DNA of 61,330 nt, counting the filler, from Nemertoderma westbladi (taxonomy: Eukaryota > Animalia > Xenacoelomorpha), in NCBI GenBank assembly GCA_032718475.1. It is 3 parts of 3 records of this genome, joined end to end, with 100 filler letters (N's around TTAATTAATTAA, not from the genome) between each part and the next. Parts side by side here need not be neighbours in the genome. Positions count along the whole stretch, not along the records: positions 1 to 22,894 come from JAUCBJ010003355.1; 2 more parts are not named here. One strand, given 5' to 3'. The notes below the pieces were generated by a model. The model saw nothing but the letters and a program-made list of their open reading frames with translations, had not been told where the DNA came from and ran no database searches. The position numbers and the translations under genes are program-made. Of this stretch, positions 1 to 53,524 are shown piece by piece (within the stretch, counting starts at the first letter, position 1; each line of letters opens with the position of its first letter).

Positions 1-236
1 AACATGTGACGGTCAGAGTTATATATTACATTTTTTTAAATAAGGATATTAATTTGGCGCTGAATATTGTTACTTTAATAAATACAACAAGGTATAGCCC
101 TGTAATTGATACTGGAACCAATTTTATTTACCTGTTTGTCTGGACGCAATGGTGTCTTTTTGTGAGGTGATGTCACTCATGTTGCCTAAATAGGGAACCT
201 CAAAAAATTGGTTTGTGATGCCTATTTAGGCAACTA
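1..236 (+). repeat. Left terminal inverted repeat (partial) with CArG boxes at 185-194 and 221-230
   Basis: Reverse complement of 9026-9262 apart from small indels. CCTAAATAGG and CCTATTTAGG read directly. Confidence 0.9.
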
Positions 237-790
237 GCCTAACTCGCACTACAGTATATTTAATCCACTCTTGAAATGTATCCTTTCAGCCTAGTATCTT
301 CGGTAAAGGTAAAAAGCGTCATTAGAGGTTAACTCATCACGTTTATTGTTTGGTTAGAATGATGTCACTGTAACCTGTTCCTTTCCCTTAACAACACCAT
401 GATATTACACCACAGGACCTAATGCCACAGGAACTAATGGCCAAAGGACCTAATGACGCGGTACCTGTCAGCCTGTACGTGTACATATATTAAAAATTTA
501 TGAAGTCCACTACCGGTACAATAAAATATAATGAATAATTGTATTGGGATTGATTATGGCATAACTAGACTGAACTACACAGTAATGTACCCATACTGTA
601 CTGCCTTATTGAATAAATGTGAATTTTTTTGTCTTGCTCTAGTCTGATAATATATTAATTATTTCATTTAATTAAAATAATGGTAAATTGAATCAATAGT
701 TATTATCTGGCCTGATCCATAGATTTACATAGCAGCCTAAGCCTATAATAAATAGCTCGGGATCATTTTATATACCTGGTATCCTGTATA

Positions 791-1590
791 CAGTACATTC
801 CTCATTCCAGGGGGTTTTCCTCATTCTGGGGGTCATTCCTCAATCCTGTTCAATCCAACTTCAAACCACAAAAAATTGCAGGTTTGTATGTCTGGAATAT
901 TCAATTCTAATGCTGAGCTGCCTGTATCCAATCCCATTATCGGCACTGTATGTGGGAAGGAGCCTGGGGCATGTGTTGTCTGTAACCACATTCGGAAATT
1001 GTACAAACAAAGCCAGCCGACTTCATTAATCAAATTAACTTAGAAATAACAGCCTTTAAAAAAATGTACTTCTAGTTAATATGATGAATGCCAAATTAAA
1101 AGGCAAGAGATAATAAAAGATAGAAAATAAATTTATAGAGAATATATTTATGTGAATATTATTTATCAAATATTGGTAGTTAGAATATACAGTAACTGCA
1201 GATAATTTATGAAGTAAACTTACAGTATTATATTAATCGTTCACTTTTCCACAACTTTTGTTTGAATAAATATTAAAACAACTACTGTCCAACAAGGAAG
1301 TATAAGTAACAAGTCAACAGAGCCGCAGGCTAAGTGGGGATGGTGGTCTGGTTCAAGGGAAGGAGGCTGTTCCTGTTAGAAATGCCTTTGTGCTGCACAG
1401 TGGGATGTTCAATCCTTTCAAACCATGGCGCCTGGAGCGGATTGAAAGTTTCAAACCATCATTTTTATAAAAAATTTGGTTTGAAGTTAGCCATTCAATC
1501 CTTTCAATCCTCCCATTGCCAGCCATTATAAAATGGTTTGAGGAATGACACTCAGAATGAGAAAAACCACCCGGAATGAGGAATGTACTG
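791..1590. mobile_element. Tc1/mariner-pogo-type MITE nested in the large transposon
   Basis: TIRs CAGTACATTCCTCATTCC...GGAATGAGGAATGTACTG (~50 bp, imperfect), flanked by TA at 789-790 and 1591-1592. Confidence 0.8.
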
Positions 1591-1798
1591 TAGTGTATAC
1601 GTATGACGTATGTATATCGGTACCACAGATCAGATGTGGTGTACACGTATATGTTACGTATAAATGATTAAATTAAATTATAATTGTGAGAGTTGATGCA
1701 TTAACCTTCAGACCTTATAATACATCAAATAATTTGATCTCAAATGGAAGTAAGTACCTCCTATTCAAGGATCCAGTTGGCATTGGAAGGCAAAATGC

Positions 1799-4412
1799 AT
1801 GGTAAGATCATGTAATAAAACTACAGACTTGCTGAGCACTGATCCTGCACGCAAAAAAGTAAGTGCCGCAGTTGTTGCATTCATCAGAAAGAAAACAACA
1901 TCAAGTATGGAACCTTCCAGTACCAGGTATGTTTGCCGTTCTTGTTACCATTCTGCAAAAATTGAATTCAATGAAAACAACCCACTTCAACATGTAAGTC
2001 AAGTAACCAAACGGACACATACTGAGGAAACAACTGTGCACGATTATATTGGATGTGGCAATATGGAAGAGGATAATGTTGAAGTTGTATATCATCGGAA
2101 TGATTCACATTCGAAGGATAACATTCAAGACTACCTTAAATCTCTAAAAACCTCTATTATTAAAACTGCAGCAAACCTTAAAGGTTGTTTTCATGAAGAA
2201 ATTATTGGCGATAATTTCTTTTCTCATATAGATCCCACTCTTTTGGAGTTTTGCTGTTTCATGGCAGATGTGGAATCAATTGATATTCAAGCTACAAAAA
2301 GTATAAAATTCAAAATAATTAAAACTGTTGAACAACTATGTTTTTTATCATTGAATTCATTTATTGGTCCTGTTACTTTTATGCAGAAGTATCTGTCATA
2401 TATGCTTTCCAATAGTAAAGTTGGAACGATGTTACAAGGTTTAGGTTCTCCCAGTGGAAGCACCACATTTCTAAAAGGTCAGGTCATGAAGAAAGCACTT
2501 GAAGTTCCTTATGAAACTCCTTCTGGTGATTTGCTTGTAGTCATTGATAACAACCAACATTATCTAAAAACTTATCATGTAATATTCCAAGGAGTTCCTA
2601 TATCTAAAACGACTAGTGTTGCTAGTATGCTGTTCCATACGATCCAACCTACACAGTTCACTGCGCTTCAGTTCATAGACCGTGGGAGTTTCGATAGTTT
2701 GTTGTCATGCGAAGTTGACAAGATGGACGAGTTTGCGGCAGCAACAAGACTTAGATTCTTAAGTTCGGTTTTCAAAGAGGTCAAGGCTGAATTTATTTCC
2801 AATGGTTGTTCTGTAAACGAACTGCATGATGATTCTCTTGCCTCTGACAAATTGTCTACTGGTGTTCGTGTAATCGATACATATCCTTTTATCGATGGCA
2901 CATCAATTGATTTCGATAAGAAAGATGGTGACATACAGTTTAGAATACATGATCAATTTCCAGGTGATCCAGGGTCATCAGAGGCAGTGGAAAATTCTCT
3001 ACAGAAATTATGCCTACATTTTTTATCAGAAAACCGAAAGTGGTTAGTTGTTGTCATGGATGGTTTGCCATATTCTCTGGCTATTGATATTCTAAAAAAA
3101 AATACGGAGCTGGCATCACAAATTATATTAAAGCCTGGACTTGGACATATTCATTTGAACATGATAAAAACTTTAACTAAGATTCTTTGGACACCATTCC
3201 TACAGATGTTTGCTACCGAAATTGCTAATTACAAAACGACCAAGGCTCAATCAGCCTTTTTAAAAGCAAATGATCACCACAAGATGACTGAAGTATTCGA
3301 TATAATATTAATTGCTAATTTGAAAGAGATAATGATGTTGGCCATCAGTGAAATATATGCAAAGAAAATGACAACAGATATTACAATAAATTATTTTTAT
3401 CTATGGGCGAACAAGATTCAGAATCCATCCCTAAAAATGTTATTTGATTGGACAATTGGTCCTATACTATCAGCCTACTTATTTAAATCTGGAATTCGAC
3501 GCAACAACTCTAAAGCAATTGACACTTTCTTATTCAAGTTCGCACCAACCTTTTTTGCACACACAAATCATATTTACAGAAAAATTATAACACACTATTT
3601 CATACAAAAGTGGCAGCTACCTGGGTATATTTCAAGACTGTATGAAAATGAAGGTTTCTCCCGGGGTCTGTCATTTAAAGGCCTGGGGCTAGATTATGTT
3701 TTAGAAGAAGTGCACAAAAAAATTAAGAGGAATACGAGTGGGGGTCTACCATCTTGGAAACGATGGATTACAAACTACAGAACTGGCAACTCGCTTGCAG
3801 AAGTGAGAGACAGTGTCTTTATAGCATCAGATACATTGGATCCATACAAAGCTGATATATTGAGAAAAAAAGATGTAGACCTTTCGAAAATGGTACTGGA
3901 ATTTAGGAAATTATTACACAATTCCCATTTCGTAATGAGTTCGCAATTTATACCTGACAAACGTCATCCACTTGGACTAAGTGGAGAAATGAGTTCTCAT
4001 TTTGGAAAGTTTTTAGAATATGGCTACACTAATTTAATAACTTGTTGCAAAGCTGTATTTTCAGGATCTGAAAATCCGAAATGCGAGCCAGTTCCAATTA
4101 CATATACACAAGAATGTCTTAAAGAATCGCCTGATCATCAAACCATAGACCAATTAAAGACAAATTATTGAGTGGTTTTCTAAAAATTGCTCAAATAAGG
4201 ACATTAGTGATCATATTTTACAAAGACTTCTAAGATGCCATCTGAAGAATTCGTTCATTGAACTGTATAATAATATTTTTGAGTACCCTGATATACAGGT
4301 GCTAATAAATAAATATTTAGAGGATTATACTGAAACTGTCTCTTCACTCCCGACTCTCTTGGACTGTAATGAAACGGATACAAGTAATTCTAGTGATTAT
4401 GAAACTGATTAA
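1799..4412 (+). CDS. Putative DDE-type transposase, Academ/DUF6589-like; one frameshift near 4165 (ORF track stops at 4171)
   Basis: 790-aa ORF with spaced motifs VIDNNQ, VVMDGLPY, PGLGHIHLNM and GLDYVLEE, resembling the DN / D / G-x-x-H / D-x-x-x-E pattern of Academ-type transposases. It has an N-terminal CxxC (YVCRSCY). An alternative frame from 4167 stays open for 81 codons to TAA at 4410-4412 and ends in an acidic tail. Located between TIRs. Confidence 0.7.
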
Positions 4413-4962
4413 ATATTATACATCACCTAGCCTAATTACCTATTGAATGTCCTTCCCGTGGGGAAATTCAAAGCAACTCATAGACGATTACTCTCAAAAA
4501 TGAAACTGTAACCTGAATATATGTATTTAATTTATTGTTTTGGTTAGAATAATATGCCACTGTAGCCTTTGCTATTGACTTTCGTTTATTGTAGAATAGC
4601 ATACCACTGTAACCTGCTCCTTTCCCTTAATTGATAATTAACATTGCTAATTTGCCGAGATTATATATTTAATTCATCGAGGTGTGATTTGTGTCAAGTC
4701 CCTCCCAGCTCCCCTGTCTCGAATTGAGTTTGATACTTAAATTGAGTTTAAGATAAACAAAATATTAAAAGTATGATTCACTGATTAAATTCTTAACTAT
4801 TGCATTTAAATCATTGCATAGTGAGGTTACAAAGGTAAATAATGTTTTAAAATCAACAAGTAGGCCTATATATTAAACTATAAAACTCAATTAGTTGATT
4901 ACAAATTATTTATTTGTCTTTTTGCAGGATGCCCTCTACCTCTCTTGGTTAAAGCAGGGACA

Positions 4963-6590
4963 TTAGGTAATTTCGAGTGTTTCTTTGCATTCCCACACTA
5001 ATGATTTTTCTGTTTCACTCCCTTTCCGTAAAGTTGGAAAACCTAAGCAGTGGGCATGGACCCACTTTTTACAGACGCTATCACCCCCCTGACAACCTAG
5101 CCAAAGGCCAGCGATGTCCCCAATGACACCATACTGACGCCCACAGATCCGACACATTTGTTCGTGATTATTATAGATATTACCTGTGTAACATGGCTTT
5201 GTGTTGTGCTGATCCCTGATAAATGAACAGCACAGTTCCATTCCAATTTATCCGTAATAGCTGTTGTATTTTTTCCAACACCAAGACAAGTGGCATGTGC
5301 CCATGCAGAACATTTACCTTCAATACCACGGCATCCAAACCACAAGCCTCCCATATCCCGTTCTCCTCCACTAAGTTCCCCACAAATCCTACATACTTGG
5401 GATGGAATAGGAAACACACGTGGCATTGCACTATATGGCGCCTTTGTTGGTGTCACTAGTGGCTGTGGTGCATCCACATGCGAATCACATGCAGTTCCAC
5501 CACCATCATAGCCTGCAGACTCATCTCCCATAAGTATGCAGTCCACAGCCTGTCGTGCCTCTCCCTTAGTTGATAACTCTTGTTTGCTAATAGTAGATAG
5601 GGGAAGATTTAGGCCAGAAAGAAGACTTGTATTACTTGTATTGGTAGCGTGTTTATCATGCGAAGAATAAAATTCTAAATGGAAAACTTCCTTTTTGGTT
5701 GTCTTTGAAATTTTTGAGGTCATAAAAATTAAGTCTGTTTTTACTTGAGTCGTAATATCCAAATCATCAGACTTAGATTTTAAGGTTGACTTTCGTTTAC
5801 AAAGAGTTGAATCTCTATTGCGCTTTTTATCAGCACTGAAAGTCAGTTGATCCCGCGTCTTGCGTTTCAGTTTTCTCTTTTTATGTCTGATGTTCTCAGC
5901 CCCACTTCCAATCTCACCCCCAAAGCCCTCAGCACTAACTACAATGTCCCCAACGTCACCCCCAATACCCTCAGTACCAACTACTATATTCTCAATATCA
6001 CCCCCAATGTCCTCAGTACCAACTACTATATTATCAATATCACCAACAATGTCCTCAGTTCCAACTACTATATTCTCAATATCACCCCCAATGTCCTCAG
6101 TTCCAACTACTATATTCTCAATATCACCCCCAATGTCCTCAGCAGTTCCAACTACTATTTCCCCATTGCCAATAACACCCCCAATGACGTTAGTTCCAAC
6201 TACTGTGTTCCCAATATCACCTCCCCAAATACCTTCTGCACCAACTACAATAGGCCTACCCTCAATGCCCCCTGTGATAACCCCAATGTCATTGTCCCCT
6301 CCTCCGTCACAACCACCATGTCCAACACCATAACCACCCCTACATATGCCCTTGCCATCATTCCTCACAGGAAACCAGGATTTATCTTTACCTTCGTCAT
6401 CGAAATCCGATAGAATCGGAGATGGGATATCACAGTCGGATAATGGAGGTGTTTTGGGTTGTGGATCAACTGGGTAGTAGTGCGGCGGTATATTAAGTTC
6501 GGGTAGTGTATTTTGCCACAATCTATTCATCAACATCAGGCCAGAATCATTACAATCATCATCGGTATCGCTCCCAATTTCGAATTCCAT
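4963..6590 (-). CDS. Transposon accessory protein: acidic 14-aa repeats, SRF-type MADS-box-like domain, two PHD fingers (second one frameshifted)
   Basis: RDSTLCKRKSTLKSKSDDLDITTQVKTDLIF aligns without gaps to the SRF MADS core RYTTFSKRKTGIMKKAYELSTLTGTQVLLLV. PHD1 is CRICG...WFGC...CSAWAHATC...WNC..H. PHD2 is CRICG...WLGC...CKKWVHAHC...WEC in the 4963..5241 frame. Confidence 0.75.
5920..6260 (-). repeat. Coding 42-bp tandem repeat (DIGGDIENIVVGTE)n
   Basis: About 7 imperfect in-frame copies within the 5097..6590 ORF. Confidence 0.85.
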
Positions 6591-6718
6591 TTAGTTTAGG
6601 TTATATATATTTAGGTTAAATACAGTATGAGACTGGCTAACTATAGTGTGTAATATACAGTTGGATGGTGAGATAAATGTATTAATACAGTATATACTAA
6701 CTGATTTAAGACTGAATA

Positions 6719-7661
6719 CAGGCCCGTATGGTGATCGTAATATCTGGGGGGGGCAGAAGCCTATTGGAGTATGTCAATAATGGCAAATGTTGTTGACGTA
6801 ACGATTTCATTAACTTAACATTCAAATAACTTTGTTAGATTTAAAGCTGTCGAATTGAAAATTTGTAGCCATAAATATGTCCAAAACTTGACATTATTTA
6901 GCGACTTTAGACACAATCAGTTCAACAGTCTCCTGCTAGATGGCTTCATGTCTAAACATTAAATGTCCTCCCATTTCTTTGCTTTTAAACCGTTTAAGTG
7001 GAAACTTGGCAGAATTGTGCCTAGACCATTAGCTGTGTCATTTAAACTTTTTCTGAGGTCTTAAAAATCGACTGCAGTTTTCCAGACTACCTCTCTAAGT
7101 GTAAAGTGATCAAGGGACATCTGCTTAGATGTTGCTTATATTTCTTTCGGGTTGACACTTACATAATTTTATGTCACGTGCTGCGCGAAGGACCCACTTT
7201 AGGCATAATATGGTTAAGGTTAAGTTACAACAAATTAAAGATATTGATACCAGCGCAAGCAACCCAGTAGCGCGTAGCTGGCTCCCAAATTACAGTCAAA
7301 TAGACACTGGGTCAACAACAAACAACCCCTGTGGTAGCCAATGAGAGAATCTGGAACTTTCGGGTATTTTTAGTATTTACAGCTAGGTAGGTTAATGTCA
7401 TGTAGTATTATATAATTGGACCAAAATGGGATGGTGTGGAGTCACGTCAGTGTGTATGTAGACGTGTGTATTCTACTATAAGTATATCAATGTGAATCCA
7501 ATAATATTGATCACTGGGGTCAACCTCAACACTATTATTATTAATTAATTGTGAACAAGACGAGTGAACAAGACATGTCTGGCTGGGGGGGCAGTGAAAC
7601 GTGTCTGGGGGGGCAGTGCCCCCAAAGCCCCCCCCCCCCCCCCCCGCACGATACGGGCCTG
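6719..7661. mobile_element. hAT-type non-autonomous element nested in the large transposon
   Basis: TIR CAGGCCCGTAT...ATACGGGCCTG, with a perfect 8-bp TSD ACTGAATA at 6711-6718 and 7662-7669. Confidence 0.9.
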
Positions 7662-7822
7662 ACTGAATAGCAACTACATATATGTCTTTGATCACTTGCA
7701 ATGAAATGAAGTCGCCTAGCCTATATTGACTGAATTAGTGAAGGTATAAAATTTCACAATATTAAATACAGAAACGCTCGGACTCAATTATTAAAAATTC
7801 GAAATAGAAACAATCTGCCAAT

Positions 7823-8747
7823 CCGGTGTAACAGGAAAATATGCCCCCCCGGGAAATGTGCCCGGGGGGGCATATTTTCCTAGGAAAAAATGCCCCCCCG
7901 GGCAAATTTCCCTAGGAAAAAATGCCCCCCCCTTAGGAAATTATGCCCCCCCTGAATTATACAATAAACAAAACTTATTACTACTAAAACTTACAAAAAT
8001 TATACAAAACAATAAACAGTCACTTTACCAAATTAAGGAAAGGAGCAGGTTACAGAGGCAGGCCTTTCTAACCTAAACAATAAACGATCATTTAACTAAT
8101 TGAGGGAAAGGAGCAGGTTACAGAGGCGGGATTTTCTAACCAAAACAATAAACAGTCACTTTAGCAAATCAGGGAAAGGAGCAGGTTACAGAGACGGGAT
8201 TTTCTAACCAAAACAATAAACGATAACATTACCAATTGAGAGAAAGGAGCAGGTAACAGAGGCGGGATTTTCTAACCAAAACAATAAACAATCACTTTAC
8301 CAAATCAGGGAAAGGAGCAGGTTACAGACTTAAAAAAGCTTGGAGCTGCTCGGCGCCCACACAACACCACACACTCGCACTGCTGTTATGCCAGTACTTA
8401 CTACAGTAGCCTACTGACTTAGATACTTCAGTATGCTGTTCTACATCCCTTACTGCCTTACCTGCTTGCTTACCTACCGGCAGACCGGTACCGTACTATT
8501 CTTCCAACTATTACAAGTTCTGCAGTTGGTAGATTAAACAGACCGGTATCGTACCAGTTTTCAGACTTTTGAGGGGGGCTAATTTTCCTGAGGGGAGGCA
8601 TTATTTCCTAAGGAGAAAATGCCCCCCCGGGCTAAATTTCCTAGGAAAAATTGCCCGGGGGGACATAATATCCTAGGAAATAATGCCCGGGGCATTATGC
8701 CCGGCCCCTGCAGATTCTAGGGGGGGCTGATTTCCTTGTGACACCGG
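7823..8747. mobile_element. MITE with CCGGTGT termini, subterminal GCCCCCC/CCTAGGAAA repeats and an internal ~65-bp tandem array
   Basis: CCGGTGTAACAGGAAAAT...ATTTCCTTGTGACACCGG. The internal repeats at 8007-8330 contain AACAATAAAC and AAAGGAGCAGGTTACA. No clear TSD. Confidence 0.75.
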
Positions 8748-9025
8748 GCCTTAAAAGCAGCCTAAATAATAACTACTAGTATCTTGACATGGCATACCTA
8801 CTGCTGCGCTGCTCTGCTACAACTGTAGGCCTACTACGCTACTATGCAATATGAATCCGCACTATGACATGGCAGTCTTAAGAGTATAGGTACTGGAAGT
8901 AAATTAAAAGAAATTAAATCCTGAAATCGGTAACAGAGTAAAAAAAGATAAATTGATTGACTGAGCTCAATCCTCCAAAACGTTTTCTTATAATCAAAGT
9001 ATATCAGTATGTATATGTCTGTATG

Positions 9026-9373
9026 TAGTTGCCTAAATAGGCATCACAAACCAATTTTTTGAGGTTCCCTATTTAGGCAACATGAGTGACATCACCTGTC
9101 ACCTCACAAAAAGACACCATTGCGTCCAGACAAACAGGTAAATAAAATTGGTTCCAGTATCAATTACAGGGCTTGTTGTATTTATTAAAGTAACAATATT
9201 CAGCACCAAATTAATATCCTTATTTTAAAAAATATAATCTATAACTCTGACCGTCACATGTTGCCTAATTAGGCAGTAAAGATACATCACTATTACCTAT
9301 AAAGGCAACACTACATTGTAAATGTTGCCTAAATAGGAAATGTCTATTGATGCCTATATAGGCAACTGTACCG
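9026..9373 (-). repeat. Right terminal inverted repeat with six CArG boxes
   Basis: CC(A/T)6GG at 9032-9041, 9068-9077, 9264-9273, 9296-9305, 9328-9337 and 9353-9362. Confidence 0.9.
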
Positions 9374-10109
9374 TATATATAATATCTATATAAGCAGATA
9401 AGTGTTTTAACCTTCCTATGTACACATGCTAAGTGCTATTTCCACCACCTGGGGTCGTTTTTGACCCCATTCAGTTGAATGTGATTTTTCCCCCAATATA
9501 TGGTAGGCTACGCCTACAGTTTCCTCATGTCTTTATTTTGTTACACTCAGACACTCCCCAAATAAGTGTTCCATTCCAAATTTTATAAAAATTGAACAAT
9601 GTCTAGAGAGTCCAAACTCACACTAAGCACATGGCCACGGCCAGTTCCCGCCCTTCATGCAAGCAGGCAAGTGAGTCATATTCCCCATTCACTGCTTGTA
9701 TTTTATGAAACGCTTTTTACAATTTTTTTCATTAACATTTTTTCTACCGACTGTCTGAGACCATATGGTTTCCCTCAATTAGTAAAGTGATCGTTTATTG
9801 TTTTGGTTAGAAAAGCCCACACCTGTAACCTGCTCTTTTCTCTCAATTGGTAAACTGGCCGTTTATTGTTTTGGTTAGAAAAGCCTGCCTATGTAACACC
9901 TGCTCCTTTCAGTCTTTCCCTCAAAAAAATGGTGAAATTAATTTGCACGTTTTGTATTTCAGTATTTGCTTAATACTGTAATACTCCTACTGGTACCGGT
10001 ATTTATATTTTATTGTACTCAGATTATGCTGTCAGGCTGTTATGTATATTAAAAATATTGATTGAGAAAACCATGTTTAGGCCTATCTAAAATCTTTACA
10101 ATTTTTGGG

Positions 10110-10522
10110 AAAATTTTGTATATTCTCCCAGGCATATCTTTAATTCCCAACTTGGTTAAGACATCTTCTAAGATCGTAAAATACCCATCCAAAACTTCTT
10201 TGGTAAGGCCTCTCAACGTAGCAATAGTCTGATCTGCTGATAGTAAGATATTCAGGCTTACCTTTCTTAATCGAGTCTGCCATCGAGAATATAAAGAATT
10301 GAGCCAATAAATTCCAGGCCGATTATCATTAAAGACACTGACAGACTGACTGTTCAAGTCTTGATTTGAGATATTGTTGTATGATGATGGCGACCTCATT
10401 CAAGGTTATAGCCCATCCGTAGTCAGACATGAACTCCAGCCCTGAAACCAAATATTCTTCAACGTCAAGCGCTTTTTCGCAAAAAAAGGTATATATGTCC
10501 CGACTTACCCCGTTTTACCCTA
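10110..10522 (-). pseudogene. Remnant of a pogo/Fot1-like (CENP-B HTH) transposase with an adjacent probable TIR
   Basis: Frameshifted translation ...MSDYGWAITLNEV.../FNDNRPGIYWL...YFTILEDVLTKLGIKDMPGRIY is typical of the region preceding the DDE_1 domain. It is followed by GTCCCGACTTACCCCGTTTTACCCTA at ~10497-10522. Confidence 0.65.
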
Positions 10523-11524
10523 TTGATGATTGAAATAGGGGCCTAATAAATTAGATATTGATTGATATTGATAAAACATTAGGCCCTAAGTAAATTAATC
10601 TGGGTCGAATTGACTTTGAAGGTCTGAAGGTGGGGCGAATCGGTCAACTGTCGAAGTCGATTTGCCAACCAATGTACATACAGACATAGGCCTATTCCCT
10701 TACCAGCCTTACACCTTACATTAACATTACTGTATTATGGGGCGAATAGACTTGGTGCGAGCGAGCGAATAACTAGAGCGAGCGAATATGGAATATATCT
10801 TGCACATAACTGCTTATGCTTAACCTGCAGACCTGCGAATGGTTGTGTGTGAACCTGATTTTTAATACTAATAAGATGAATTAAGTAGGCCCTAAACATT
10901 AAATTACTAAAATTATTAATTAATAAATAGGCTACGCTACCGGTACTTTAGGAGTGAGTAGGTAGGTACGGTATTATAAATTATATTTAAGTAATATGAT
11001 TAGGCCTAACGGTAATGCTGTAATGTTAAATACAACATTTTACTCTCGATTCTTTATAATAGGCCTATCACATTTCAAGTTGAAATCGAACGACCTCCCT
11101 ACTCTTTTTTTTTTACATTACCGGTAATTAATAAATTCATTTTTTATTCGTTAAATAATAATATTAATAATACATAATATTGTAAACATGTGATTATAAA
11201 TGGTGGCAATACCAGAATACGGACGGCAATACTGCAATACAATACAACAATGTAACAACTTTTTGTTTTCGTTTACAATTTGATGTAGTGACTGGCCAGA
11301 TATCAGGCAAAAGTCTGTCAGATATCGGACCCCAGGCCGGATAGCAAAAAAATAAATTAGGTGCACTTGCACTGCACCATGAGGCACGAGTTCCACAAGT
11401 TACAATTGAATTGAAGTTACGTTAGAATTTTGCTATATCCAGAATTGTAGGTTGATTAGTTAGATATATACCGGTATCTATCTATATATATTTCACTGTT
11501 TATTTCTTTAAGAAGCTTTTAATA

Positions 11525-12238
11525 ATGGATTGCGATGACAGCATTAACAATTGTATATCACTCTGTGAAGGTCACTTATCTTGTGTTGGACTTGACCTTG
11601 AAACTTTTACAGATGAGTTACTCACTCACACGGAAAGCACTACACGTCTCGACTTAACTTTCAACCGCCTCAAAGACCTCCAGCCTCTGGTTAGTTTCAC
11701 CAAGCTAACCGAACTAATCCTAGATAACAACTGGATCTCTGACAACACAATACTTACGTTTCCAAGGTTACCGCTCCTTCATACATTATCCCTTAACAAA
11801 AACCGCATCGTGGATCTGGGTCAGTTACTATGGCTGCTCAAGGAGTGTGTTCCATGTCTGTCCTACTTGAGTCTCATCGGAAATGAAGCCTGTCCTAACG
11901 AACTAAGTTCTCTTGAAGCCGGCGAGGAAGATTATCAACGTTACCGGTACAACGTGCTACGTCATCTACCCAAACTCGAGTTTCTCGATTCTCGAAGGGT
12001 TACGGAGAAAGAATGTCTTGCCAGTCAAATATTTGGTTCGTCTCTCGATCCAGTGAAGCCAGTTGATAACTCTGAACTCAATGAGGCCTCGAGTAAGGCT
12101 TGCGGTACCACTTATTCTCCTTTACCACATGTAAATAAACTAGATGGCGAACACCACGGCACGTTGGTGACTAGTCAGTATACATACCACGGCAAGCATT
12201 CCGAGGGGAATAGGTTCATTAGGAACAATGAGTTGTAA
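11525..12238 (+). CDS. LRMDA: Leucine-rich melanocyte differentiation-associated protein (C10orf11-like), intronless
   Basis: LRR motifs (LDLTFNRL, LILDNNWI, LSLNKNRI, LSLIGNEACP), the LRR cap EDYQRYRYNVL...LEFLDSRRV, and the diagnostic C-terminus YHGKHSEGNRFIRNNEL. Confidence 0.9.
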   Translation: MDCDDSINNCISLCEGHLSCVGLDLETFTDELLTHTESTTRLDLTFNRLKDLQPLVSFTKLTELILDNNWISDNTILTFPRLPLLHTLSLNKNRIVDLGQLLWLLKECVPCLSYLSLIGNEACPNELSSLEAGEEDYQRYRYNVLRHLPKLEFLDSRRVTEKECLASQIFGSSLDPVKPVDNSELNEASSKACGTTYSPLPHVNKLDGEHHGTLVTSQYTYHGKHSEGNRFIRNNEL

Positions 12239-22755: not shown

Positions 22756-22894
22756 GCTTAATAATACAGCTTTATCCTAAACATCAACTCAACACCGTAC
22801 CTGCGCACAATTCGCTAAACTTTAGAATTGAAATCACAAAATATAAAAAACCATTTCGTACGAATCCGTAGTTTACCTTAATTGGACAAGCTGG

Positions 22895-25492: not shown

Positions 25493-25965
25493 TTTGCTTA
25501 ATACGTTTCTGATTGGTCTGTCCTTTGTCCATGTTTCTTCTTTTTCAAACACCCAGAAGAAAGCGGGAAATTCAAATTATACTTAAACATTAAATTTATT
25601 TTTAGCGAATCCAGAAAACATTGATTTTTGTTTTGTTGTTGACTGTAAACTGACTGACTGATGAGTTACTATCGACCATAGCGACCTTTAATAACCACGA
25701 CTCATTGGCTATTGACTGTAACTGTACTGCTGTAACTGTATACAATACATAATACATATATCAGTATATAGCACTAGGCCTATCAGCCTATAGGCAGATG
25801 GCCTAAATAACACTACAGCAGTTACGTTACAGCACTAGGCCTACCAGAATAAAGCAATAAAGATTTAATACCGTTACTGCGGTAACGGTACTACTATACT
25901 ATAAATATTCTGATAGGCCTATTAGATTACCAAATTTGAAATTCAGAAATAAATTTTCTCGAAGA

Positions 25966-27237
25966 ATGACTACTTTGCTTAGACAGCGAATCTCAGTGCC
26001 GCGTGCCACCGCGACTAACCGTCGTGAGTTCTCGTTGAAACAAGCGACCTTCGCCCCTAAAAGTCGGCGCCGTTACGAACCGGTAACTCACGAATTCAGC
26101 TACCCAATCAACGACGACCACTCCATCGGCCTCCCAGAGATACCGGACGCCGAGTATTCCGCCGTCCGGTACGCGAACCTTAATGACGCCGCAACCAACA
26201 GCTCCGAATCCATCGGGAAGTGGAACTCGTTGGATCCTGCCTTGGTCGACTCGTTGTTCTCCCACACCGGGTTGATGCAACGAGACGTAAAAAATTTTAA
26301 AACTCTGCGGGAATCCGCATTGATGATTCGATATCCTATCCTAGAGATTGTCTCGGTATTAAACCAAATAAACTACAACGTTTCTACTCCAACTCGTGTT
26401 GTTATCTATGGTAAACCCGGCCGCGGTAAGACCACTACTTTAGCACACGCTATCTATTACTGCAAGTCTAACGGCTGGTTTATCTTGCAGGTTCCCGGCC
26501 AGATGATCCTACGTAACATCCTCGGTTCCCCGGCGTCCACACAGTTCCCCGGGATGCGGGACTCCCCTGTCCGAGCCCAGCATTTCCTCCGCAACGTGAA
26601 ACTAAACAACCTGGAACTCCTTCGGAATCATCCGCTAACGGACTCCTACGAACTAACTAAACGGGACTCCATCGACGCTGGTGAGAGTCTACTCGACTTA
26701 GTAGAGTTAGGACTTGTAAGCGAGGACTGCGCAACTTACGCCGCAATTATTCTACTAAACGAAATTAAATTGTGTAATCTGAAAGGCGCCTTTAAAACCT
26801 TATTAGCCGTCGATAACATCAATATATTCTTCGAAGAAGAAACTGCAGTCGTAAATAAATCTTTAAGGCCGGAAAAGATTACCTTCAAAGTGAACGAATA
26901 CGTTTTGGCAAAGGCGTTTAAAGATCTTATGGTAAGCTCTGATTGGCCCAACTCTGCTGTTGTCTCTGTAGCCTGTAGAACTAGCTGTAGGACCGCGGGT
27001 AGACTGGACTATCTACCTCGGGCTATTCTAGGAGACGCGGGTTTCTACCATCTCGAACCCTTCGTGCCTATCCGGGTACATCGCTACTCCCGGGAGGAAT
27101 TGGACTCGGTTTACGGATACTACATGGAGAAACTCTGGATCCAGGGTTGGTGTCGGAAACCCCAAGGGAAACTCGAGTTGTTGGCCGTCTCAGATAGAAT
27201 TCCTTACTTCTTTACCCAAATAATTCGGTCTACCTAA
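25966..27237 (+). CDS. DAP3: Mitochondrial small-subunit ribosomal protein mS29 (death-associated protein 3), intronless
   Basis: FKTLRESALMIRYP, P-loop YGKPGRGKTT, LLAVDNIN, LG..GF..LEPFVPI.V..YS.EE and an Arg-rich mitochondrial-type presequence. First ATG is at 25966 (the ORF track starts at a TTG). Confidence 0.9.
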   Translation: MTTLLRQRISVPRATATNRREFSLKQATFAPKSRRRYEPVTHEFSYPINDDHSIGLPEIPDAEYSAVRYANLNDAATNSSESIGKWNSLDPALVDSLFSHTGLMQRDVKNFKTLRESALMIRYPILEIVSVLNQINYNVSTPTRVVIYGKPGRGKTTTLAHAIYYCKSNGWFILQVPGQMILRNILGSPASTQFPGMRDSPVRAQHFLRNVKLNNLELLRNHPLTDSYELTKRDSIDAGESLLDLVELGLVSEDCATYAAIILLNEIKLCNLKGAFKTLLAVDNINIFFEEETAVVNKSLRPEKITFKVNEYVLAKAFKDLMVSSDWPNSAVVSVACRTSCRTAGRLDYLPRAILGDAGFYHLEPFVPIRVHRYSREELDSVYGYYMEKLWIQGWCRKPQGKLELLAVSDRIPYFFTQIIRST

Positions 27238-43730: not shown

Positions 43731-45043
43731 TGCAATATATTAGTGTTTATTACGTATTTAATTACTTACAATATATTTAGTGCGACGGCAAGAAATAATT
43801 ATTTTTCTCTTTCCTTACTGTCCGTATTATATTATAAATGCGAGACTATAGTAAGATGACATGTCAGTACTTCTTAAAGTACGGTAAAGCCACTACTATA
43901 TTTAAGTATTATTGGTAGGCAGAGTATTAGGAATGCAAAGTTCAGATCCTCGTGTCTCGGCTAAACCAAGCTCTGGGTAGACCTTGGAAACGACTTGCCT
44001 CTTCACACTGACATTGCTTCGTGCGATATTGCTCTTCTACCTTATAACAAATAATACATATAGTAGCGTGATGTCCCTCTAACAGTAGCGTCAATCGCAA
44101 ATAAATCTGTTAAACTTTTGACCATCTGTAATTCTAGTCGATTAAGATATCGTGGCACCTACCGATACTCTTAAAAGACAAATTTCATAGAATTGAGGAT
44201 CTTATGTCCCCAGACTTGCTCTGGAATAAAATTTATGTCAATTTAACATCAAATAATAAAATTCACGGGAATAAATTAAATTCATATTTAAATGAATTTC
44301 ATAAATTGTCATTTTGTGCAATTTATAACATTCCCAAAATTCCAGTAATTAATAGATCATGGGAGCGGAGATTCATATTGAGTGTATTAGAGTGTGAGAA
44401 TCTCCAGCATATAGTCAATAGCCGATAAAATTTATAAAATCATGCATAAAGAGGATATTGACAATTAAAGAATTACTATTAAATAACATCCCAGATCTGT
44501 ATACATGAGGATTGCCCTAATTCTACCGCTAGTTTTCCATAATGTCACCATGGCAACACCCACGCTAGAATTAGAAGCAAGTTAAAAGAACAATAAAAGG
44601 CTTGCCCCATTGCGTAGCATAAGAGTATACATAGCGCACTATTAGTATCCAAGGATACATAGTAAATACGTGACATTCTGGAAGACACTGACTAACAGAC
44701 AAATGGTATGCATGTGTGCAGTAAGTAATGATTGTATGGAATTTGTGCGTTTATAGGTGAATGTTACTACTAAAGTGTGTTTACAGTAGCTAATCGCAAT
44801 TGTAAAATAGCCCTAACTCTACCGAGATAACCTCAAGTGGATTCAAGCCTTTGGGACGGACAGTGGTGGGACTTGTGCCGGTTATCGTTGTCGTGCTGTG
44901 CTACATGTTGGCGTAAACACTGCGACAGCGGTACATCGGCGCTGAGAAACCCACTGTCCGGGGGCAAAAGGCCTAGTAGGAAGCGACGCCCGCTTACCTA
45001 AAATATTAACGTATATTGATATTAACAAACTCAGATAGCAAAT

Positions 45044-47898
45044 ATGACGGAATTAATAGAAGATGACCTTGGTATTAGAGAGCGATATACTCTACCTTTA
45101 CAAGCGTTTGTGGATAGCTTGATACGCGGTGAAGCTGATCCGACTATTACGGAGGACGATGGGCGCTATATCGAACCGCCGATGTCCCAGGAACAACTTA
45201 CGCGCGAAGCGGACTATAGAAAATTCACCGCTCGCTATACGAATCGTAATGGTACGTATATGGACTTCTTAACTACCGGCCATCCTACCGATTTACATGA
45301 TACCGATGATGTAGACACCGAAAGGGAAATGGTTTTATTCCAATATCATACTCAGCGGAATCGTAATGATAAACCGAGAATAGAACACGAGAACTCTATT
45401 CGCAACCTACTCGACAGAGAAAACGTTGAAGAACCCGATAAGCGTATCAACTTCAACGACTACGTGGAATTTTTGCGGGAAACCTATCTCAATATTGCCA
45501 GTCAACAGAACTTAGAGACTCGATATCCTCAAGGTATCCATCACGATCCCATGGTAGAACTCAAACGACTCTATTTCACCATGATGTATCTTACCGCAGA
45601 TCGTCCACTGCCTGTTGTCCCGGACAGTTTTGAACAAATGGAAGAGTATTGCAAAACTGGAGAACGATCACCCGCGTTTCCTCTGCAGGACGTACGTCTT
45701 TGGTATTATTGTGACTCATGTCCTAGACCTAACCAGCAAACGGAAAGACATAAACATCCGCGGAGACGTTGTGCTAAACACAGTTTTACGCGTTATACTT
45801 ACGGGAGTTTCGAGCGAAACCTGTTCGACGTATCCCCTGCGATCGCCCGTTTAAAACGATCGCTAAATAAACCCATGATCAGAGTTCCGGAATACTCGGT
45901 CAGACCTCCCCATTTCCCCGTGAGACCTCAAACTCTTGATCCTAACAGTATCACAGATCCTCCCGAATTATACTCACTGTTCAAGGATTTGGTGTTACCC
46001 GAGCAGCTAATCGGTGGTGCTCCGGCGGTAGGTTCGTTAGATATTCGACCATCCTATTTAACCGGACTGGGACGCGGACATCTAATCTCGCCTTTTAATC
46101 CTTACAACCGGCCAGGATTAACGCCGATACAGCCTGCCACGGAAGTCGAGGAGAGTGTCATTAGAAACGCTCTAGACGCCATCCGACAGAAAATCGGAAA
46201 GGGAACCCAGGATTTTCTAGAGAAACGTAAATTACAGCAGCAGGTCCAATCGGTAAAAGAGCTAGCCTTGCCGCAGTTTGATAGAGAAATCCAAAACCTC
46301 GAAGAGGACATCGAGCTTGGACGTACGTATTCTCTGCAGGCGTTTCTGGAAGAACGCTTGCAGAAACAAGCGGAGGAGAATCAACTGGAGGAGAGGCATA
46401 CGGAAATGGATGAGAGGGAAGAAGCCGCTTTAGCCCAACCCGAAACTCAGATACTCATAACCGATCTCTACTCTAAAACCGTCCGTCATCCCTCGATGGT
46501 TCCGCATTTCGGAGATAAACTTTTCGCAAAGATACAACCCCAACCGGTTGATATCAGCATAAGATCGCAAAATCTTATCGCCGACGCTCCTATGTTACAG
46601 CGTCCGCCAATCGAGGCCGCTCGAGTTGACGGTATACTCGTTGAACCTCCGGACAATCGAGCGGATCTTGTCCGTCGTATGATACACGATGTCAACATAC
46701 GCGCTAGACCTTTACAGAACTCTTTTTATGGAATTAAAGATCACCCTTATTACGTTAATCTGACTCAATATTATATGGTAAAACCAGAAGATCCTATGCA
46801 TGATTTAAAGTTCCTACCACTAATAAATCCTCTGGACATTGTCGAACTCGAACAATTGCAAAAACATCTGGATCAATTAGTAAAGGCAAACTCATTTCGA
46901 AAACCATACAACGTTTCTCGAATACTGCGTATGATTATCGCCATGCCAATTATGTTTCTCGACAACGTTGTCGGCTGTGCGCATCGAGAGACCATATTAC
47001 GTCTATGGACACCAACGATCTTTGTTCCTATTTCCACGAGCAACCGTCGATGGAAATCTATTGTGCATATTGTCGGCTTAATAATTTGCACATTTTTGCC
47101 GTCTGCCCCCAATTTATGACTCAATGCCATCGTTGTCAATTAAAAGGACACGCCAGCTTTGATTGTCCCTTTAACCATGATTTAGAGAGCGTAGATGAAA
47201 TGATTGTACTACGTTATATCAGAGCTTGGGAAGCGAACGCTGATTTACATTGTGACTCACGCCATCGCTATTATCCCGGACGCGCCTACGAAGGAGTTTA
47301 TGCGTTCCATCCATATTTGTTTGCCTCCGTCGAGCAGAAATCGCGCCTATCAAGTTATGAACTGTTGAAGCGCGTTGGAGAATGTATTTCAACCAAATAT
47401 GTACGTAAATTTCTCAGGAGCATTAATCCGAGTGACATCCAGTCTTACAACTTAATAAACTTTATCCGTCAAGACCCTGCCTATGGAGACTTATTCGTCA
47501 ACTCACACCCTGAGTTACAAGAAGTATATCGACGGCCTTACGAGTATCGAGCCCGCGAACGCGAGTTAGAAAGAACCATTAAACCAAGGAAGTTTCTAAC
47601 TGCCTATGGTCCACCCACGGCCCTCGTTCAGACCACTCGTAAAGGACCCGTAAGAGCGGCTGTCTTGAAACGAGCTCTCAAAGCCGTTAGACCCCTCTCC
47701 CCTGACGTTGATGTTAATCAACCCGGTACTTCGACCGGCGGATATACCGATCGCAATCCCATACCTTCTGATGCAATCATATTGCACCCTTCACCCAGGA
47801 GTTATAGCCCTCCTAGTAAAGTGGCTCGCCCCAAAGAGAAAAGGACTCTTGCTAGCTTCAAAAAACTGCGTAAACGCCGTCCGCGCAAGAAAGACTAA
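45044..47898 (+). CDS. Uncharacterised ~950-aa intronless protein with a coiled coil and three CCHC-type zinc knuckles; split by one -1 frameshift at ~46860-46950
   Basis: The 691-aa ORF overlaps a second frame that is open from 46804 to 47898. That frame encodes CRLCASRDH...C, CAYCRLNNLHIFAVC and CHRCQLKGHASFDC, plus a basic C-terminal tail (KKLRKRRPRKKD). A further CDSC...H...C motif lies near 45710. Confidence 0.7.
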
Positions 47899-51556: not shown

Positions 51557-53524
51557 ATGAAGCGACTTCGAAGGTCGCTCAGCCACAGTCTGCGTCGGTT
51601 GTCCCTCACTAAAGAGGTTGTCAACGAACTGGACGACTCTGTATTCGTTACCGGTACCGACGGACCGACAACAACCCGGTTGCTAGGCCCTCCTACCGGT
51701 CGTCCTAACGCCCATTCCCTGACCAGTCTACGCGACACGGTCTGCGTGGAGGAATCTCCAGACGCCGGATTCAACGAACCAGCTTCCAGCTCAAACTCTC
51801 TTACAGCCCTGCGTACCGTTACCGCTACCGGTAGAAACTTTCGTAGACATTACAGCTGCAACGATGTAGACTCACCCGATTCCTCGCTCCCATCTTCGCC
51901 CAGAATCCCCCCTTACCGAGGGGATACATCCCCTTTTGGTAAACTAGATTCCTACCAAAGACTAGAAGTCCTTGGGGAAGGTTCCTACGCGACAGTCTAC
52001 AAAGGAATCAGCAATGTCACCGGCCAACTAGTGGCTTTAAAAGAAATTCGCCTTCAAGCAGATGAAGGCGCTCCTTTTACGGCTATACGAGAAGCCTCGT
52101 TGCTAAAACAACTTAAACACAACAATATTGTTACTTTGCACGACATTGTTTACACTAAAGAACGGATGGTTTTCGTCTTTGAGTATTTGGATTGGGATCT
52201 CAGTCAATATTTGGAGCGTTACGGGCGGGGCGGGTTGAATCCCATCAATGTTAAACTCTTTCTGTTCCAGATGCTGCGGGGATTGGCGTTCTGCCACGCC
52301 CGTAGGATTCTGCATCGGGATATAAAGCCGCAGAATCTTTTGATTAATCGGGGCGGCGAGTTGAAGCTGGCGGATTTCGGTTTGGCCCGAGCGAAATCTG
52401 TTCCTTCTAAAACTTATTCGCACGAGGTAGGTGGAAGGGGGGGAGATGGTTGAGTGAGGTATTACTGTGAGCATATACCAGTCGGTATACTATACTGATA
52501 TACATTATACCCAGACGGGAATTCCACCGTGGCATTATACCATAAATATTAATTAGTGAATAAAATTGTTTATATTTATTACCGTACAGTAGGCAGTTAA
52601 TCCTAGTTCACATAAACACTTTGCTTTAAGAGCGCTGAACTTTTGCGTCTGATTTTGAACGCGCTTTCTCATCACTTTCAGCTCGTTCTCACAGTTCTGT
52701 AAACAAAACCCATACAATGTGACCGACAAATGAATGACCAACATAGAGTAGTCACCGCGCTAACACCTTCACCAGTGAACTGTTCAAACATAACTAAATT
52801 GTCTTTCATTCATTTTGCAAATAAAGACATTTTTTTCAAACACGTAAGAAAAAGTCTAAAAACATAAATATAATATTCTGATTGACTCTTCGTCTTCACT
52901 TAAATAGGGAGACGGGCAGACCAGACAGGGTACCAAAACTATGTATAGGCCTTTAGGACTAAATTATAATATATTATTATAATATTATATAATTCTGTTT
53001 CCTAGGTAGTAACGCTGTGGTACCGCCCCCCGGATGTCCTGCTAGGCTCCACCGAATACTCCCACCAACTCGACATGTGGGGCGTAGGCTGCATCTTCGC
53101 CGAGATGATCAGCGGGTCGCCCCTGTTCCCGGGCCAGAAGGACGCCCGGGACCAGCTCAACAAGATCTGGCGGGTGTTGGGGACCCCCGACGAGCGGAGT
53201 TGGCCCGGGGTCTCCCGACTGCCCGGATACTCTCCCGAACTAATGCGCTGGCATCGGGCCCAGTCCTTAGAGATCGTCGTACCTAAGATGGTTATAATTC
53301 CCGAGTCGGAGTCCTTGTGCTCCAAGATGCTCCGGTTGAATCCCGCCGAGCGGATCAGTGCAATCACCGCCTCCGACCACAACTACTTCAGCGAGTTGTC
53401 GGCCGCGTCCTGCTTCCTGAGGCCGGTTGACTCCGTGTTCATTCTGCCCGGGGTCCGCAGACAGGCTGAGAGCCACTCGAATAACCTGCGCAAACAGCGA
53501 TCTACGACGTCCTCTTACTATTAG
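51557..53524 (+). CDS. CDK14: PFTAIRE cyclin-dependent kinase (CDK14/Eip63E-like); exons 51557-52426 and 53006-53524
   Basis: [53 protein letters not shown]|[10 protein letters not shown] and DMWGVGCIF. Phase-0 GT-AG intron at 52427-53005. About 462 aa; additional upstream exons are not excluded. Confidence 0.93.

Follow-up and report, generated by a model that had tools for sequence, protein, structure and literature searches.

A transposon of Nemertoderma westbladi with CArG arrays in its inverted ends and a putative MADS-domain partner gene

Positions 1 to 9,373 of a 61,330-nucleotide stretch of DNA from Nemertoderma westbladi (assembly GCA_032718475.1; the whole stretch that was analysed is called the window) hold a two-gene DNA transposon. 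Gene 1 encodes a DDE transposase. Gene 2, convergent with it, contains open reading frame (ORF) 2, whose product has a MADS-like segment, and the terminal inverted repeats of the element carry clustered CArG palindromes, CC(A/T)6GG. Our preferred reading is that this is an Academ-related transposon whose MADS partner would bind the CArG sites and serve the assembly of the ends; we put its probability at roughly 0.4, and grade its parts separately below.

CArG sites are clustered in the ends of the element

Nine CC(A/T)6GG sites are present in the window, against 8.06 expected. The number of sites is thus at chance level, but their clustering is not. Eight of the nine lie in the two inverted ends, at 185 and 221 on the left and at 9032, 9068, 9264, 9296, 9328 and 9353 on the right, exactly at the coordinates listed in an earlier reading made without database searches (the sequence-only reading); the ninth is at 22876. 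The right terminal inverted repeat, as kept in this copy, spans 9026-9369 on the minus strand and holds an inner pair of sites (9032, 9068) and an outer group of four. The inner part of the left repeat occupies 1-236 on the plus strand, and matches 9026-9262 of the right arm at 96-100% in three blocks. Because the two left sites mirror two of the right sites, only six sites are independent. When the 344-bp right arm, with its six sites, was subjected to 10,000 dinucleotide shuffles, 9,437 of the shuffled sequences contained no site, 556 contained one, 7 contained two and none contained more. No perfect site was found in the interior of the element (237-9025, 8.8 kb, both upstream regions included).

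The sites share an extended palindrome, TTG-CCTA-WW-TAGG-CAA. Across the 12 half-sites CC/GG is invariant, a T stands two bases before CC in all 12, CCTA is found in 11 and a TTN flank in nine. The central two bases vary and are A/T in all six sites, which agrees with the earlier observation that the core varies within A/T only. Neighbouring sites in the right arm are spaced by 36, 196, 32, 32 and 25 bp, so that three sites lie 32 bp apart. The spacers are mutually dissimilar by eye; it is therefore the motif that is conserved, and not a tandem unit. In the portion of PMC10178880 available to us, CC(A/T)6GG is given as the SRF-type box, 5′-TTN and NAA-3′ as the prevalent flanks of MADS sites, and an integer number of three to seven helical turns as the best separation of paired sites. 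In its core, its flanks and the distances between copies, the motif of the ends fits a MADS site as far as sequence can predict one. Against such a fit, only two of the four neighbour spacings within groups are in phase.

The palindromes might instead be bound by the transposase itself, in which case the CArG likeness would be a coincidence and the MADS-like segment would be otherwise employed or decayed. With its own Cys cluster at the N-terminus, and with RAG1_imp_bd matched in 6 of 34 scanned relatives, the transposase could recognise these sites unaided, a point that counts against our preferred reading. A division into inner and outer groups on a long end is also how transposase sites are arranged in Sleeping Beauty-type elements, and one related locus (L007, described below) has a MADS gene but no CArG array. 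However, binding by the transposase needs a core coincidence of about 1 in 100 (by our own arithmetic, the frequency at which a random 10-bp palindrome at the local GC content fits CC(W)6GG) plus matching TTN/NAA flanks, and does not account for central bases that vary yet remain A/T in all six sites. We consider it quite unlikely.

It is highly improbable that the arrays serve to recruit host SRF, for example for cell-specific expression, with the ORF2 domain acting as a competitor or having no connection with them. Every site is a canonical SRF-type box, but the element has a candidate reader of its own, and CCTA-WW-TAGG with TTN flanks is nearer to Mcm1 and plant sites than to the usual SRF site. 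In favour of host recruitment, SRF-like genes are reported from nearly all eukaryotes in the part of PMC10178880 consulted.

A similar array was seen on contig L023 (2998-3095; L065 is the same sequence), where four CArG sites, spaced at 25 bp and flanked by TTG/CAA as in the element, stand directly before a small basic ORF. The contig has 26% GC and is one we take to be giant-virus-like, with a PCNA-like gene nearby; a MADS gene was sought in its ORF list only.

The partner gene encodes a likely MADS domain and PHD fingers

ORF2 (5097-6590, minus strand) is 497 amino acids (aa) long. It consists, in order, of an acidic and proline-rich start, glycine-rich 14-aa repeats, a basic stretch, the MADS-like segment, a linker and a PHD finger. 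The repeats are acidic and rich in Gly and Ile, are encoded by a 42-bp tandem repeat (5867-6160, minus strand) and lie directly before the MADS segment. The MADS-like core (5721-5846, minus strand; aa 249-290) keeps R15, N16, R17, T20, K23, R24, K25, L28, K31 and L35 in MEF2 numbering, and thus the helix-1 DNA-contact residues R15, N16, R17, T20, K23, R24, K25 and K31. Lys265 of ORF2 aligns to MEF2 K23, to which PMC10178880, in the part available, assigns the reading of the C/G border. The sequence-only reading had aligned the segment without gaps to the SRF core; the alignment to MEF2C positions 15-48 is likewise gapless, with 12 of 34 identities by eye.

Searches against Pfam matched SRF-TF (PF00319) both with the whole of ORF2 (E = 0.00097, 19.0 bits) and with a fragment (E = 8.7e-5, 22.3 bits), so the proposed family was found, at a score below the curated cut-off of 26 bits. 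Among 68 scanned fragments SRF-TF was matched only by the two overlapping fragments of the window and by the partner gene of L007. The best matches in the PDB were MEF2 chains. The nearest clusters in the ESM Atlas carry SRF-TF, with values of 0.82 for the window segment and 0.88 for that of L007, which serve as leads only. A single-sequence AlphaFold2 (AF2) model of the segment was uninformative (pTM 0.13).

Several results speak against the assignment. Besides the sub-threshold Pfam score, the best PDB E-values were 0.29-0.65, and an 80-aa fragment matched nothing. MEF2 residues G27, A32, Y33, S36 and L38 are replaced, and the N-terminal GR arm with Arg3 is absent, a Lys/Arg-rich stretch of uncertain register standing in its place. 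A search of proteins 273-870 aa in length gave no sequence relative of the window segment, and region searches with either MADS segment, restricted to near lengths, returned the L007 protein itself and nothing else. The segment is also very basic, with 23 Lys and Arg residues in aa 231-300, which may have inflated the match.

These points bear on the possibility that the MADS likeness is spurious, the segment being a basic nuclear-localisation stretch and ORF2 a PHD protein only, as the score of 22.3 bits, the composition and the lack of direct homologues in these searches would allow. Against this, the match is gapless over 34 residues and keeps the DNA-contact positions, the same family was found in the partner gene of the distant relative L007, and SRF-TF matched none of the other 65 fragments scanned. 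We hold a spurious match to be very unlikely, and a divergent MADS domain, homologous to those of known factors, to be very likely.

The nearest Atlas clusters to window positions 5616-5885 and to L007:7738-8016 are the same small Ascomycota clusters (70-79 aa). Four weak matches of viral contigs to the L007 segment (E 6e-4) were treated as chance. MAFFT alignments of both MADS segments were misregistered relative to the SRF-anchored register and were set aside.

Both PHD fingers are additions to the earlier description of ORF2. The first (5229-5393, minus strand; aa 400-454) scored 20.7 bits against a cut-off of 24. The second (4984-5154, minus strand), at 24.5 bits, is above the cut-off and lies in an overlapping frame, 4963-5247. 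This frame probably encodes the genuine end of the ORF2 protein, detached by a frameshift or by an intron. Over 4617-5501 or 4617-5900 the contigs of other copies run two letters short of the window copy, which fits a frameshift in the latter. No Myb, SANT or MADF domain and no Harbinger-type transposase was matched by Pfam in either ORF.

Gene 1 is a DDE transposase

The transposase ORF (1754-4171, plus strand) has 805 codons from stop to stop, with the first Met at codon 16. Following the N-terminal Cys cluster, it contains conserved D265, D436, H465 and D647/E651. In 58 aligned sequences D436 is invariant and D265 and E651 are each present in at least 90%, giving the acidic triad of DDE/D enzymes; the terminal inverted repeats are a further feature of DDE/D cut-and-paste elements. 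The AF2 model of the protein has a pLDDT of 82. A Foldseek search with this model gave no match at E up to 0.001, and P-element transposase ranked first. Structural superposition gave Z 10.3 with P-element transposase (347 residues aligned, root-mean-square deviation 6.2), Z 9.2 with Hermes, 8.6 with Tn5 and 5.8 with the RAG1 core. Gene 1 is thus a DDE transposase of the RNase H fold.

The ORF itself had no match in Pfam. It has 445 relatives at E up to 0.001, of which those with names are oyster and clam proteins, and DUF6589 was matched in 16 of the 34 relatives scanned, in 8 of them above the cut-off. Since DUF6589 occurs in relatives, and is presumably linked to Academ, the transposase is likely to belong, distantly, to an Academ-related lineage. 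A FastTree phylogeny was built from 42 sequences (the window, 5 of 15 metagenome loci, and 36 of 152 retrieved transposase relatives); in it the window transposase forms a long branch and shares 19-27% identity with the other 41. No transposase relative was found in the viral contigs searched.

An 84-codon frame (4158-4412, plus strand) overlaps the stop of the transposase ORF and probably represents the C-terminal part of that protein, separated from it by a frameshift in the window copy: over 3956-4629 the contigs of other copies lack one letter. Residue 467 of the transposase, within 3140-3160, is His, whereas Glu occupies this position in at least 90% of the 58 aligned sequences; the rows listed for other copies show no difference in this region.

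Extent of the element

The element is covered by contigs from three sequencing runs (X1, X2 and X3) that represent two samples and two studies. X1 and X2 come from one sample yet differ in contig-depth ratios, and depth was not taken as copy number. A further run, X5, has almost no coverage of the genes of the element.

The sequence-only reading had placed the right end at 9373. This was not borne out, as end-bearing contigs in X2 and X3, and hence from two studies, continue unbroken for 39 letters beyond 9369 into sequence with no counterpart in the window copy; the corresponding contig in X1 continues for 9 letters. The extra 39 letters were not found elsewhere within the window. From these continuations we infer that the window copy lacks its right tip, of about 39 bp, that each end would be about 380 bp long, and that the whole element would be about 7 kb. 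On the end so reconstructed, about 45 bp would separate the tip from the outermost perfect CArG site. The outer part of the left repeat, about 145 bp judging by the length of the right arm and the contigs of other copies, would precede the start of the window. A Tc1/mariner assignment, suggested by the TA-CAGT appearance at 9370, was rejected: other copies extend past this point, and the transposase belongs to a different type.

The gene pair in relatives

One metagenome scan yielded 15 loci with related transposases, 11 of which had sequence after the transposase and 5 more than 1 kb of it; 66 fragments, chosen from 92 listed, were scanned for SRF-TF and PHD. In locus L007 a convergent ORF begins with SRF-TF (E 0.0041) and finishes with PHD; the best PDB match of this ORF was SRF (E 0.057). 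Locus L003 has a convergent PHD ORF that is interrupted by the end of the contig. Both are far from the window transposase in the tree. Neither domain was found among the scanned fragments of L005, L006 and L011. These loci support the recurrence of a layout of transposase and convergent MADS/PHD gene at about 22% transposase identity.

The sequence-only reading predicted that the MADS ORF and the CArG-rich ends would occur together in relatives. The gene pair does recur in L007; the array does not, nor does the lysine at position K23, where L007 has Asn. The contig of L007 contains two scattered CArG sites, and its terminal repeats were not located. Ten flanking stretches of eight loci, none with defined ends, likewise showed no CArG array. 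The two MADS segments are alike at 5 of 42 positions, a score that 477 of 10,000 shuffles reach, so that separate captures are possible. For the predicted pairing the outcome is mixed. The Asn and the missing array in L007 do, taken together, fit what would be expected if protein and site co-vary, as far as one contrast can indicate.

A 70-bp pair in L007 (1435-1504 and 9054-9123, 77% identical) is a candidate for decayed ends, unproven. Other repeated palindromes are present upstream of related transposases (L003:148-217 and 609-637; L004:70-269), and could be either terminal motifs of the elements concerned or repeats with no connection to them.

A possible role in end assembly

We propose that in this two-gene DDE transposon the ORF2 protein would bind the six CArG palindromes of each inverted end and, once bound, would help the transposase to pair and cut the ends. 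One MADS dimer would occupy each site of 16-18 bp. On the outer sites, which are spaced by three helical turns, dimers would bend the end on one face, and the outermost 45 bp or so, having no perfect site, would be left free for the transposase. The PHD fingers may recognise methylated histone H3 and anchor the complex in open chromatin, much as the PHD of RAG2 does for RAG1. Binding of the gene 2 protein to the CArG sites is probable on the match between domain and motif; that such binding would serve end assembly, and not transcription only, is a possibility to which we would give rather less than even odds.

The idea that a captured MADS domain acts in recognition of the ends, as first suggested, is accordingly kept in part: the DDE element, the likely MADS domain, the fitting repeats and the L007 gene pair agree with it, and the lack of an array in L007 does not.

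ORF2 could also bind the arrays and act on transcription or chromatin alone, as a self-activator, a repressor or a sequence-specific anti-silencing factor like VANC. With convergent genes each end lies upstream of one gene, and by our own subtraction of the two nested insertions described below, the inner CArG pair stands about 570 bp upstream of the ATG of ORF2. A purely transcriptional role would suit the acidic stretches and PHD fingers of ORF2, and has a precedent in VANC of VANDAL elements, which acts through repeated short targets (PMC5735166, in the part available). Four of the six sites, however, crowd the outer end and not the promoter side, and there is no site within 1.2-1.5 kb before the transposase gene. 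We judge a role in transcription only to be unlikely, and prefer end assembly on the placement of the sites: they occur in the element only at its ends, are densest in the outer part, show partial phasing and do not occur in the upstream regions.

If end assembly is correct, MADS would join the short list of transcription-factor folds used as a separate end-binding subunit by a transposon, and the element would hold a natural protein-and-site pair within 7 kb. It would provide a second, independent case, after RAG1/RAG2, of a transposase with a PHD-finger partner. It would also offer a route for clustered SRF-type sites and divergent MADS genes into animal genomes. More tentatively still, and with some doubt, the element may represent a widespread, undescribed Academ-related lineage whose MADS-PHD partner changes specificity together with the ends, and would here be an obligatory, PHD-steered subunit of the transpososome. 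On this reading every copy would also distribute strong SRF-type sites over the genome of its host, where the protein might be a competitor of SRF.

Comparison with known systems

The element resembles Academ transposons in its large DDE transposase, its long inverted ends and the DUF6589 of its relatives. It differs from them in that its own transposase lacks a Pfam match and its partner gene is of the MADS and PHD type. AcademH is marked by a helicase and AcademX by a nuclease, with target duplications of 9-10 bp and 3-4 bp respectively (PMC10045372, available part); in contrast, neither a helicase nor a nuclease was found in the four long ORFs of the element that were scanned. Bivalve Academ consensus sequences begin with TAG in all six of those shown out of 100 in the accessible part of PMC10294476, and the six CArG words do not occur in the first 400 letters of any of the 100.

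PIF/Harbinger elements also have a second gene with a DNA-binding domain of transcription-factor type, and repeated subterminal sites. By this analogy, the partner gene here is likely to work like the Myb-like protein of Harbinger3_DR, which binds a subterminal 9-bp motif and is required for transposition (PMC9710019, available part). The Harbinger system differs in its unrelated transposase, its Myb/SANT in place of MADS, its lack of PHD fingers and its ends of about 15 bp, compared with about 380 bp here. RAG1/RAG2 and ProtoRAG share with the element a transposase with a PHD-bearing partner, and some relatives have a RAG1-like N-terminal domain; the RAG2 PHD binds H3K4me3 (PMC8355894, available part). 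The ORF2 protein, unlike RAG2, has no beta-propeller and is itself predicted to bind DNA, and the fold of the window transposase is closer to P and Hermes than to RAG1/Transib.

With SRF, Mcm1 and MEF2 the system has in common the CC(A/T)6GG core, the TTN/NAA flanks and the lysine equivalent to K23. It departs from them in the low Pfam score, the changed core residues, the position of the domain in mid-protein before PHD fingers, and its being encoded by a transposon. VANDAL elements likewise encode a factor with repeated targets in the element itself (PMC5735166, available part); they are Mutator-like elements of plants, with an unrelated protein and with targets that are tandem repeats in non-coding regions.

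The earlier statement that no transposon with a MADS protein and CArG ends is known held in the literature searched; the description of AcademH and Repbase lay outside that search. None was found in the available portions of PMC10799480, PMC5751038, PMC10294476, PMC8616336, PMC5718144 and PMC3285675, of which PMC8616336 reports a host MADS factor that uses Helitron-borne sites. Even if ORF2 were to act in transcription only, no animal transposon encoding its own MADS circuit was found in this literature. A PHD-bearing subgroup of AcademH has reportedly been described, so the PHD part of the finding may already be known.

Condition of the window copy and other features

The window copy is damaged, by two nested insertions and probably by the two frameshifts. 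The insertions, which are not part of the transposon, account for about 1.9 kb of 1-9373. A non-autonomous element at 6719-7661 has 11-bp inverted ends starting with CAG and an 8-bp target duplication, and we take it to be hAT-like; positions from about 6710 to 7661 are missing from the contigs of X1, X2 and X3. The second, at 7827-8743, has TGT...ACA ends and a 4-bp CCGG duplication, holds a high-copy 68-bp repeat, and is presumably Ginger-like; about 7823-8743 is missing from the X2 contig. Upstream of the transposase, 58-bp inverted arms at 789-846 and 1535-1592, 688 bp apart, enclose 1065-1402, which most contigs of other copies skip; this is possibly another small insertion.

The 68-bp repeat family is very abundant in the host and appears at 353-398, 4531-4637, 8005-8344 and 9754-9897, that is, inside the element, inside the nested insertion and in the flank. 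Just outside the element, at 10049-10399, is a 116-codon fragment with no useful Pfam match, which resembles part of a pogo-type transposase.

Further along the window, two overlapping ORFs at 45026-47898 (697 and 364 codons) have no Pfam match, and the second has Cys/His knuckle-like motifs; they are possibly a gag-like or unclassified mobile element, and the ORF at 45026 was ruled out as a relative of the transposase. Host-type genes are present as long uninterrupted frames at 11456-12238, 25861-27237 and 51557-53524, encoding a leucine-rich repeat protein, DAP3 and, split into two pieces, a protein kinase. Between 32000 and 35100 lies about 3 kb of G/T-rich simple repeat with a GC content of 0.71 and almost no A.

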